Below are positions 8,588-8,755 of a stretch of 64,000 nucleotides of DNA, in pieces. Made by a program: the position numbers and the translations under genes. Source of the DNA: Candidatus Omnitrophota bacterium (GTDB taxonomy: Bacteria > Omnitrophota > Gorgyraeia > Duberdicusellales > 4484-171). Each line of letters begins with the position of its first letter. The stretch's first letter is position 1. Where the stretch lies: contig JAIPGM010000003.1 in the NCBI GenBank assembly GCA_021735655.1, forward strand, positions 96,001 through 160,000, in the 5' to 3' direction. The notes beneath the pieces are model-generated. The model was given only the letters and a program-made list of their open reading frames with translations, did not search any database and was not told where the DNA came from.

Positions 8588-8616
8588 TTGAGTAAGGATA
8601 GTGGCTGTGTTATAAT
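8588..8616 (+). promoter_or_regulatory. sigma70-like promoter (TTGAGT-17 nt-TATAAT) for the ACT-domain gene
   Basis: Near-consensus hexamers with a 17-nt spacer, 140 nt upstream of ATG 8756. Confidence 0.5.
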
Positions 8617-8628
8617 GATATTTATTAT

Positions 8629-8733
8629 CCCGCCTCACTATATAGCAGGTAAATTCTCGGGGAGAATTTACCTGCACTCGGCGGGATTTAATTCGACTAG
8701 GCATTTTTGCACGCCTTATCTAGGCAAAAATGC
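8629..8733 (+). promoter_or_regulatory. structured leader: 57-nt hairpin with a 14-bp perfect inverted repeat, then a 10-bp stem hairpin, ahead of the RBS of the ACT gene
   Basis: cccgcc...gcaggtaaattctc-ggg-gagaatttacctgc...ggcggg, then gcatttttgc-N13-gcaaaaatgc, followed by AAGGAGG and ATG. Confidence 0.45.
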
Positions 8734-8755
8734 AAGTCTCATTAAGGAGGTTATT

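Follow-up and report, generated by a model that had tools for sequence, protein, structure and literature searches.

Between the promoter and the start codon of a gene for a tandem ACT-domain protein, the Candidatus Omnitrophota DNA analysed here carries a leader with two long hairpins. The 64,000-nucleotide stretch (positions 96,001 to 160,000 of contig JAIPGM010000003.1) is referred to as the window. What is such a leader doing in front of the ACT-pair gene? The original prediction had proposed a highly structured leader, which could be a riboswitch or attenuator-like cis-regulatory RNA or a protein operator. A conserved, structured cis element in the 5' untranslated region (5' UTR) was borne out; a riboswitch, attenuator or operator for the ACT gene was not. 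On balance, we favour the view that the leader is one of many copies of a palindromic and modular element found between genes in Omnitrophota, similar to repetitive extragenic palindromes (REP) and bacterial interspersed mosaic elements (BIME), and that it acts here as a constitutive 5'-UTR module and not as a ligand sensor. The leader comprises the following features:

8588..8616, plus strand: promoter of the ACT-pair gene, sigma-70-type and TG-extended, with TTGAGT at 8588-8593, a 17-nt spacer and TATAAT at 8611-8616 (10/12 with the TG in a consensus scan)
8625..8750, plus strand: repeat copy 1, comprising both hairpins P1 and P2 in full and fused to the Shine-Dalgarno sequence (SD) (covariance model R1, 98.1 bits, E = 2e-25)
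8627..8687, plus strand: hairpin P1 (sequence, fold and inverted-repeat search; all P1 pairs covary in the family)
8688..8745, plus strand: hairpin P2 (sequence and fold; the base helix covaries)
8746..8758, plus strand: SD GGAGG (8746-8750) and start codon ATG (8756-8758), with AAGGAGG kept in relatives that do not have the element

The promoter, the two stable hairpins and the AAGGAGG ribosome-binding site followed by ATG thus lie where they had been predicted. In P1, a base helix formed by ATCCCGCC (8627-8634) and GGCGGGAT (8680-8687) is followed by an interior in which UC (8635-8636) faces UC (8678-8679), and by an inner hairpin consisting of a perfect 14-bp inverted repeat, GCAGGTAAATTCTC / GAGAATTTACCTGC (8645-8658 / 8662-8675), with the 3-nt loop GGG. 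This is the single perfect short-range inverted repeat of 14 bp in the 64-kb window. P2 contains a 10-bp stem, GCATTTTTGC / GCAAAAATGC (8701-8710 / 8724-8733), extended by GACU/AGUC (8695-8698 / 8735-8738) and by a UUAAU/AUUAA base helix (8688-8692 / 8741-8745); a UC/UC internal loop (8693-8694 / 8739-8740) lies between these last two helices, and the P2 helix ends with the A immediately 5' of GGAGG. The gene extends from 8756 to 9151 on the plus strand, with its ATG at 8756, one base before 8757. Its 131-aa product matches ACT and the ACT-pair family PF19571, in agreement with the predicted ACT-type protein.

The leader is structured far beyond chance. Its minimum free energy (MFE) was -51.4 kcal/mol, compared with -28.6 +/- 3.5 kcal/mol for 200 dinucleotide shuffles (z = -6.6), none of which was equally stable. 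The reverse strand of the region gave a comparable fold (z = -6.5). In both the MFE and the centroid structure of the window leader the SD is predicted to be unpaired. Inspection of the leader fold and a terminator scan revealed neither a terminator U-run after P1 or P2 nor anti-SD pairing. The sole terminator-like call is located at the foot of P1 (8671-8685); its tail is ATTTAATTCG, with no genuine U-tract, and a terminator or attenuator was ruled out on these grounds. An Rfam 15 E-value scan of positions 8000-9400, a check suggested along with the original prediction, gave nothing above noise that overlaps the element, and no family was matched by the leader. The best match nearby, PreQ1 on the other strand (8537-8571), scored 19.9 bits against a gathering score of 39 and is noise. 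RUF1, which merely aligns with a long hairpin, and other sub-threshold matches were likewise dismissed as noise. When 14 loci bearing the family were scanned at the Rfam gathering threshold, only tRNAs were reported.

Orthologous loci were used to trace the history of the leader. The ACT protein is 100% identical to one protein from a Candidatus Omnitrophica metagenome-assembled genome (MAG) and has about 100 homologues, nearly all from Omnitrophota. From an alignment of ACT homologues, 43 genome loci were retrieved and their upstream regions inspected. A related leader directly precedes the ACT gene in loci L013, L018, L009, L036, L004 and L007; in L021 (1142-1264) and L015 (2572-2659) it is located 5' of a small open reading frame (ORF) that precedes the ACT gene. 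According to the covariance model, the element is present at the ACT gene or operon in 8 of 34 Omnitrophota loci and missing from the remaining 26, among them the three closest relatives, L001-L003 (79-82% protein identity). An alignment of the upstream regions showed TGnTATAAT at the equivalent site in these three loci, and the promoter call is supported by this conservation of the -10 box. In L001-L003 the distance from TGnTATAAT to AAGGAGG is 7-8 nt; in the window about 120 extra nt lie between the same two signals. The structured leader is therefore an insertion/deletion polymorphism between a pre-existing promoter and a pre-existing AAGGAGG. The comparison for compensatory base changes, also proposed at the outset, showed them to be abundant in related sequences, though the repeat itself is missing from the three closest relatives. 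Examples from ACT loci are the replacement of GACU/AGUC in P2 by GCAC/GUGC or GUCC/GGAC, and of CCCGCC/GGCGGG in P1 by CCUCGC/GCGAGG.

Several further observations concern the surroundings of the ACT gene. In L001 (2960-3003), L002 and L003, the ACT mRNA would begin practically at the SD, which would make for an unusually short 5' UTR. A small ORF ending in ...ERAYYIWESKGKPxGQDxxIWLQAEKEV... lies ahead of the ACT gene in many Omnitrophota (upstream regions of L008, L013, L015-L017, L021, L023 and L026); it appears to resemble DUF2934. Placement of the repeat in L021 and L015 suggests that the small ORF and the ACT gene form a two-gene operon. The divergent neighbour in the window (6592-8544, minus strand) is a UvrD/PcrA-type helicase gene, as predicted. 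Adjoining its start codon is a block, TTTTTATCTTATCATAAA (8545-8575), which is near-invariant in four loci (the window and L001-L003) and is probably the uvrD promoter or operator, distinct from the repeat. On the minus strand the block reads TATGATAAGAT, 17 nt before the uvrD ATG, which would imply a very short leader.

Related leaders are found well beyond the ACT gene. In a pilot search, the loose core pattern AATTCG ... CTCATTRAGGAGG gave 13 matches on viral contigs, at least four of which show the same two-hairpin architecture before unrelated genes. With a tighter core pattern, at least 120 loci were retrieved from metagenome contigs. Nearly all of the metagenome matches listed begin with a hairpin ending in ...GGGAU(Y), continue with AAUUCG and a second hairpin, which is long, and close with CUCAUU(R)AGGAGG ahead of a start codon. 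The 101 proteins encoded downstream of the matches listed group into some 80 clusters with no relation to one another and represent 122 Pfam families. Among these matches the downstream genes code for DnaK, RpoA (three each), EF-Tu, GroES, Rho, GAPDH, ATP synthase c, acyl carrier protein, ketol-acid reductoisomerase (KARI; two each), MreB, secretion ATPases and response regulators, many of which are, to judge from their identity, presumably highly expressed core genes. The sole metagenome contig with an assigned taxonomy is placed in Omnitrophota on the strength of its DnaK, 85-88% identical to named Omnitrophota proteins.

Most members of the family were found via a pattern that contains the SD, so that conservation at pattern positions and their association with an SD are built in. 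Three sets of data are free of this bias: 65 matches found by the covariance model only, the ACT loci, and the Y/R positions described below, which the pattern left free. In total, the model detected 150 copies in 586 kb of other (metagenome) loci. As many as seven share a single 11.5-kb contig whose genes are co-directional, and the sequence examined contains a copy about every 4-25 kb. At least 11 sites carry mirrored P2'-P1-P2 composites, 163-227 bp in length, with a single P1 in common. Their ends resemble inverted repeats (TTAATGAG...CTCACTTAA), and the same ends also form the P2 base helix. Among the 65 copies outside the SD-containing pattern, 20 (31%) are directly followed by an SD and an ORF in the correct orientation. 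A promoter at a fixed distance 5' of P1 was not found; the upstream context varies between stop codons, tRNA ends and promoters at various distances. Sequence identity of copies within a contig (mean 0.67, median 0.64) is only slightly different from that between contigs (0.61 for both), and few tandem duplicates exceed 0.85. As copies within a contig are about as diverged as those on different contigs, there has been no recent burst of transposition; the copies are old and are kept palindromic by compensatory change, i.e., by selection on pairing.

Local arrangements of copies differ between contigs. Locus L174 has two copies (902-1015 and 1209-1321), 300 nt apart, with identical P1 and different P2, before ORFs of 60 and 54 aa. 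Three tandem copies were found in L071 (11186-11636), and in L132 (~7870-8051) copies follow one another in tandem every 78 nt or so. All three look like cases of local duplication or module shuffling. On viral contigs from IMG/VR, look-alike P1-P2 leaders are present at L045:3105-3181, L050:6088-6178, L052:10538-10635 and L055 ~10220-10310, all on the minus strand. They show a P1 foot AUCC.../...GGAUC, AAUUCG, a hairpin and CUCAUUGAGGAGG, and score 38-48 bits with the model. The genes behind them encode a 426-aa capsid-like protein and small proteins, for which PHROGs annotation returned only weak matches or matches with no function assigned. Homologues of the 426-aa protein occur in MAGs of Syntrophales, Desulfobulbaceae and Phycisphaerae, not in Omnitrophota, and the motif may thus reach beyond Omnitrophota, or the viral look-alikes may be convergent.

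The unit consensus comprises a P1 base of approximately AUCCC...GGGAU with a variable interior, and an invariant P2 foot, U-Y-AAU-UC-G ... C-UC-AUU-R-A; the consensus feet read nnAUCCC, GGGAU(Y)AAUUCG and CUCAUUnA. Close to the base of each hairpin lies an internal loop of tandem U.C / C.U. The facing UC dinucleotides are 99-100% conserved in both hairpins of 149 copies, a value that is partly built into the pattern and the model, and a AAAAUUCUCUUCGAUAAUUUU-like P1 interior is conserved as well. RNAalifold, applied to a MAFFT alignment of 26 sequences, recovered P1 and the P2 foot, with double changes in 20 of 27 pairs. In 150 model-aligned copies 94.3% of cells were paired, compared with 66.3% after shuffling and 36-53% with slid partners (as the alignment was fitted to the model, the pairing figures lean towards structure; the margin is large). 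Double changes were present in all 27 pairs of this alignment, and all nine modelled P2 pairs had changed on both sides. A further pair was free to vary in the search, since the pattern allowed all four combinations of the Y before AAUUCG and the R after CUCAUU. In 109 distinct structured matches these positions were occupied by U-A in 55 cases, C-G in 53, U.G in one and C.A in none (Fisher p = 1e-30). Since this pair covaries, the P2 helix reaches the A preceding GGAGG. These substitution patterns indicate that the hairpin structure of the family is under selection.

Strand tests point firmly neither to RNA-level nor to DNA-level selection. The antisense strand folds better by 3.7 kcal/mol, owing to tandem G.A as opposed to tandem U.C loops in the energy model; because of this loop-energy effect, the strand asymmetry in MFE does not reveal the functional strand. 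When copies were sorted by direction of transcription, G.U and A.C mispairs in stems were in a ratio of 157:120 in sense and 27:35 in antisense copies (Fisher p = 0.07), a tendency in favour of RNA-level selection that is weak and not significant. In the sense and the antisense group alike, C.U mismatches outnumber A.G mismatches according to the polarity of the element and not to the direction of transcription.

The role that we favour for the leader as a constitutive 5'-UTR module draws on its family membership, the conserved structure, the insertion polymorphism, the distribution over many genes and in both orientations, and the predicted openness of the SD. A unit of about 120 nt sits between an older promoter and an older AAGGAGG. 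As deduced from the conserved -10 box, transcription would start at ~8623-8624, 3-4 nt 5' of P1, and the hairpin, which begins at 8627, would be close to the 5' end of the mRNA. Once transcribed, P1 would form a stable stem-loop about 3 nt from that end, the geometry of known 5' mRNA stabilisers. In E. coli ompA-type leaders, a 5'-terminal stem-loop of this geometry protects the mRNA from 5'-end-dependent decay. P2, with its helix ending exactly one base before GGAGG, would complete a long UTR whose pairing is internal, so that the ribosome-binding site stays single-stranded. Predictions for 64 SD-fused copies are consistent with this idea: the unpaired probability of the SD was 0.52 in natural leaders compared with 0.25 in composition-matched shuffled ones, and it was higher in 59 of the 64 (p = 1e-10). 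For the window leader the predicted values were 0.41 and 0.26. The module would thereby contribute constitutively to mRNA stability and SD insulation and would not be a ligand-sensing switch; copies at other genes or in inverted orientation would represent the same DNA element in other contexts.

A number of points weigh against this role. The predicted gain in accessibility at the window locus is modest, with 11% of shuffled leaders doing as well. The arguments for a stabiliser or insulator are geometry and in-silico accessibility, which any self-contained stable hairpins would be expected to provide. The conserved UC/UC loops and P1 interior suggest a specific partner, which a plain 5'-UTR module does not name, and the high expression of downstream genes is likewise presumed from their identity only. 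About two thirds of the copies found without the SD pattern are not followed by a gene start, and between co-directional genes these pattern-independent copies are oriented sense in 23 and antisense in 22 cases. Since copies lie away from gene starts, and in sense and antisense equally often, much of the family is not leader-acting. Finally, G.U is not clearly favoured over A.C in stems (209 vs 176), which is unusual for selection on sense RNA only.

The main competitor, possible albeit rather doubtful, is that selfish or neutral mobile DNA resembling miniature inverted-repeat transposable elements (MITEs), REP doublets forming hairpins (REPINs) or palindrome-associated transposable elements (PATEs) landed between promoter and SD, that any effect on the ACT gene is incidental, and that hairpins are kept because a transposase recognises them in single-stranded DNA. 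The element's presence in the window and absence from the orthologous site in close relatives would be expected of such DNA, as would several copies per contig, tandem arrays, mirrored composites of 165-200 bp with inverted-repeat-like ends, and both orientations being equally frequent between co-directional genes. The missing excess of G.U over A.C and the C.U mismatch bias, which tracks the element and not transcription, would also fit. What speaks against it is the divergence of the copies (median identity 0.64 within and 0.61 between contigs), unlike that of recent MITE or REPIN bursts, and the lack of a clear target-site duplication in the flanks of composites; nor did a transposase come to light, although no search aimed at one was made. 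Moreover, 31% of the pattern-independent copies are SD-fused in the correct orientation, with a helix that covaries up to the base before GGAGG; random insertion fails to explain this SD fusion and covariation. A somewhat less probable explanation takes the U.C-loop helices as sites for a trans-acting factor, an RNA-binding protein or an RNase III-like double-strand RNase, and the ACT gene as one member of a phylum-wide regulon or operon-processing signal. The nearly invariant UC/UC loops and the conserved P1 interior are in line with it, as are the many copies between cistrons before genes of which more product is needed than of their neighbours (rpoA after rpsD; ilvC) and the look-alike leaders before capsid-like genes on viral contigs. 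Antisense copies, however, offer G.A and not U.C loops to an RNA-binding factor, the loop conservation stems in part from the search pattern and the model, and the explanation comes without a named candidate factor. An extended version, which we consider equally unlikely, regards the P1-P2 unit as a U.C-loop cassette recognised by a binding protein or nuclease of Omnitrophota, which would be responsible for the maturation of polycistronic transcripts and for the output level of core genes including tuf, dnaK, groES, rpoA, rho, atpE, ilvC and this ACT gene; self-cleaving activity may be a further option. If this version were true, the viral look-alike leaders would be phages borrowing the same signal.

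Readings that tie the leader to the ACT gene itself are much less likely than a neutral mobile element or a factor site. A gene-specific riboswitch or attenuator that senses an ACT-related metabolite and controls translation or transcription, one of the two predicted options, would account for the presence, ahead of a ligand-binding-domain gene and between its promoter and SD, of a structure that is long, stable and conserved, and for the recurrence of this structure at the ACT locus in eight of 34 genomes. It is nevertheless highly improbable, given that no Rfam family was matched, that neither hairpin is followed by a terminator U-run and no anti-SD pairing exists, and that the roughly 80 downstream gene families among the matches listed form no coherent set, with copies also lying antisense and away from gene starts. 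In addition, 26 of 34 orthologous loci, including the three closest, do not have the element, and, in contrast to an aptamer, the element has long, almost perfect stems in which few unpaired positions are conserved. Nothing at the ACT locus suggests that the leader puts the ACT-domain gene under the control of a ligand. Least probable of all is the other predicted option, in which the 14-bp palindrome is a double-stranded DNA operator through which a dimeric repressor would control two divergent promoters, that of uvrD and that of the ACT gene. What favours the idea is that the palindrome is perfect and that the genes on either side of it diverge. Yet the palindrome is located 3' of the -10 box of the ACT promoter and does not belong to the conserved block beside uvrD, its sequence is unique in the window, and it is missing from relatives in which the two genes and their two control blocks are retained. 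In related copies the arms differ freely with pairing preserved, the signature of a hairpin and not of a sequence-specific operator.

The window itself contains at least three, probably four, further copies of the repeat. When the palindrome arms were searched for as a repeated sequence in the window, only chance-level near-matches were obtained; the other copies were detected by the covariance model only:

54462..54575, minus strand: copy 2, a full P1-P2 unit (R1, 67.2 bits, E = 8e-17; 64% identical to copy 1)
23412..23456, plus strand: P2-only unit, UAAUUCG...CUCACUA (partial match to R1 at model positions 64-120, 18.5 bits, E = 0.003)
15368..15483, minus strand: tentative diverged copy (R1, 14.7 bits, E = 0.03; fold and sequence)
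1907..1982, minus strand: tentative diverged copy (R1, 13.2 bits, E = 0.09; fold and sequence)

Copy 2 is antisense to both neighbours and lies before gpsA (ATG 54597, plus strand), with neither an SD nor an ORF following it. Its CUCAUUAA end abuts the 3' end of a tRNA-Gly gene (54397-54467, plus strand) with an overlap of about one base. This gene is part of a tRNA-Thr / tRNA-Tyr / tRNA-Gly cluster (54214-54467, plus strand) directly 5' of the inverted copy. In loci L078 and L150 a sense copy is preceded, at a distance of about 45 nt, by the 3' end of a tRNA. Possible explanations are a role of the element as a trailer or processing structure of tRNAs, or a preference for tRNA ends as sites. 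The P2-only unit, from which it follows that P2 can occur without P1, is flanked by the stop codon (23414) of a gene resembling that for the acetolactate synthase small subunit and by the SD and ATG (23473) of a ketol-acid reductoisomerase-like gene (ilvC), both genes being named from their translations alone; it ends 9 nt 5' of the ilvC SD. In two metagenome loci the full element is likewise followed by a KARI gene.

The diverged copy at 15368-15483 consists of a mini-P1 (UCCCCAUACGGGGAU), AUUCG, P2 and CUCAUUAAG, and lies in a divergent intergenic region between ORFs at 14551-15312 (minus strand) and 15448-16641 (plus strand). On the minus strand it is upstream of the promoter-like TTGCAA-17-TATAGT of the minus-strand gene; on the plus strand GGGGAA, the 3' arm in the reverse complement of the mini-P1, is found at the expected SD position of a 397-aa gene (ATG 15448). 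The copy at 1907-1982 is antisense between plus-strand genes at 1250-1816 and 2019-3095. Elsewhere in the window, two minus-strand genes (12909-13517 and 13888-14523) encode proteins whose N-termini, to judge from the translations, resemble those of type IV pilins (KKSFTLIELIVVIAIIAILAAIIAPNAF).

In the literature searched, no description of such an element in Omnitrophota was found, and the two-hairpin repeat is apparently undescribed. Omnitrophota are uncultivated, and almost nothing is known of their gene-expression control. The repeat would represent a major layer of control over mRNA stability and translation that has gone unrecognised, or else a domesticated repeat of long standing. In both cases it provides a route to study how selfish palindromes become regulatory parts. 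For annotators, the covariance model helps to avoid false calls of gene-specific riboswitches or spurious small ORFs and flags likely gene starts in Omnitrophota MAGs.

The closest known kinds of element are REP/BIME/REPIN elements, which affect mRNA stability, and MITEs such as Correia elements. As in REP/BIME/REPIN elements, short palindromic units are repeated at high copy number and in both orientations in transcribed intergenic space; they form a modular mosaic of two unit types, with tandem arrays and inverted doublets around a spacer; and hairpin pairing is kept by compensatory change. In contrast to REPs, the Omnitrophota units are longer (P1 30-100 nt, P2 45-75 nt), the copies are only about 60-67% identical within a genome, and about one third of them are fused base-for-base to an SD. 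REP, BIME and REPIN sequences are repetitive extragenic palindromes of proteobacteria (Bertels and Rainey 2011, PMC3116915; Di Nocera et al. 2013, PMC3733652), and the host of the Omnitrophota repeat belongs to a different phylum. A GTAG or CGTC tetranucleotide tag at one end of REP palindromes is described by Di Nocera et al. (2013, PMC3733652), and the consensus feet of the Omnitrophota repeat do not carry such a tag.

Correia elements of Neisseria (Correia repeat enclosed elements, CREE) and other bacterial MITEs are likewise 100-200 bp long, have inverted-repeat ends, lie near genes, are co-transcribed, and show presence/absence polymorphism at orthologous sites. Correia hairpins in mRNAs are RNase III substrates and alter expression. 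The Omnitrophota repeat differs from these elements in having two separate hairpins instead of one long terminal-inverted-repeat hairpin; no TA duplication was seen in its flanks, its copies are old and diverged, and SD fusion is precise. Near-identical copies as in MITEs are lacking, identity being 0.64 both as the within-contig median and for the pair in the window, and the window copy is a half unit without the inverted ends of the composite.

With riboswitches and Rfam cis-regulatory leaders the element shares a conserved, structured 5' UTR with covariation, and it departs from them in having no Rfam 15 match, no expression platform and no coherent gene set, and in occurring in both orientations. 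The 5' stabilisers of E. coli (ompA 5' UTR) and B. subtilis, and synthetic insulator hairpins placed before ribosome-binding sites, offer a parallel in geometry to the role proposed at the ACT gene, with one hairpin near the presumed 5' end and a second just before an SD that is predicted to be unpaired. Unlike ompA-type stabilisers and synthetic insulators, which are single-gene or engineered parts, the Omnitrophota element is a repeated genomic family.

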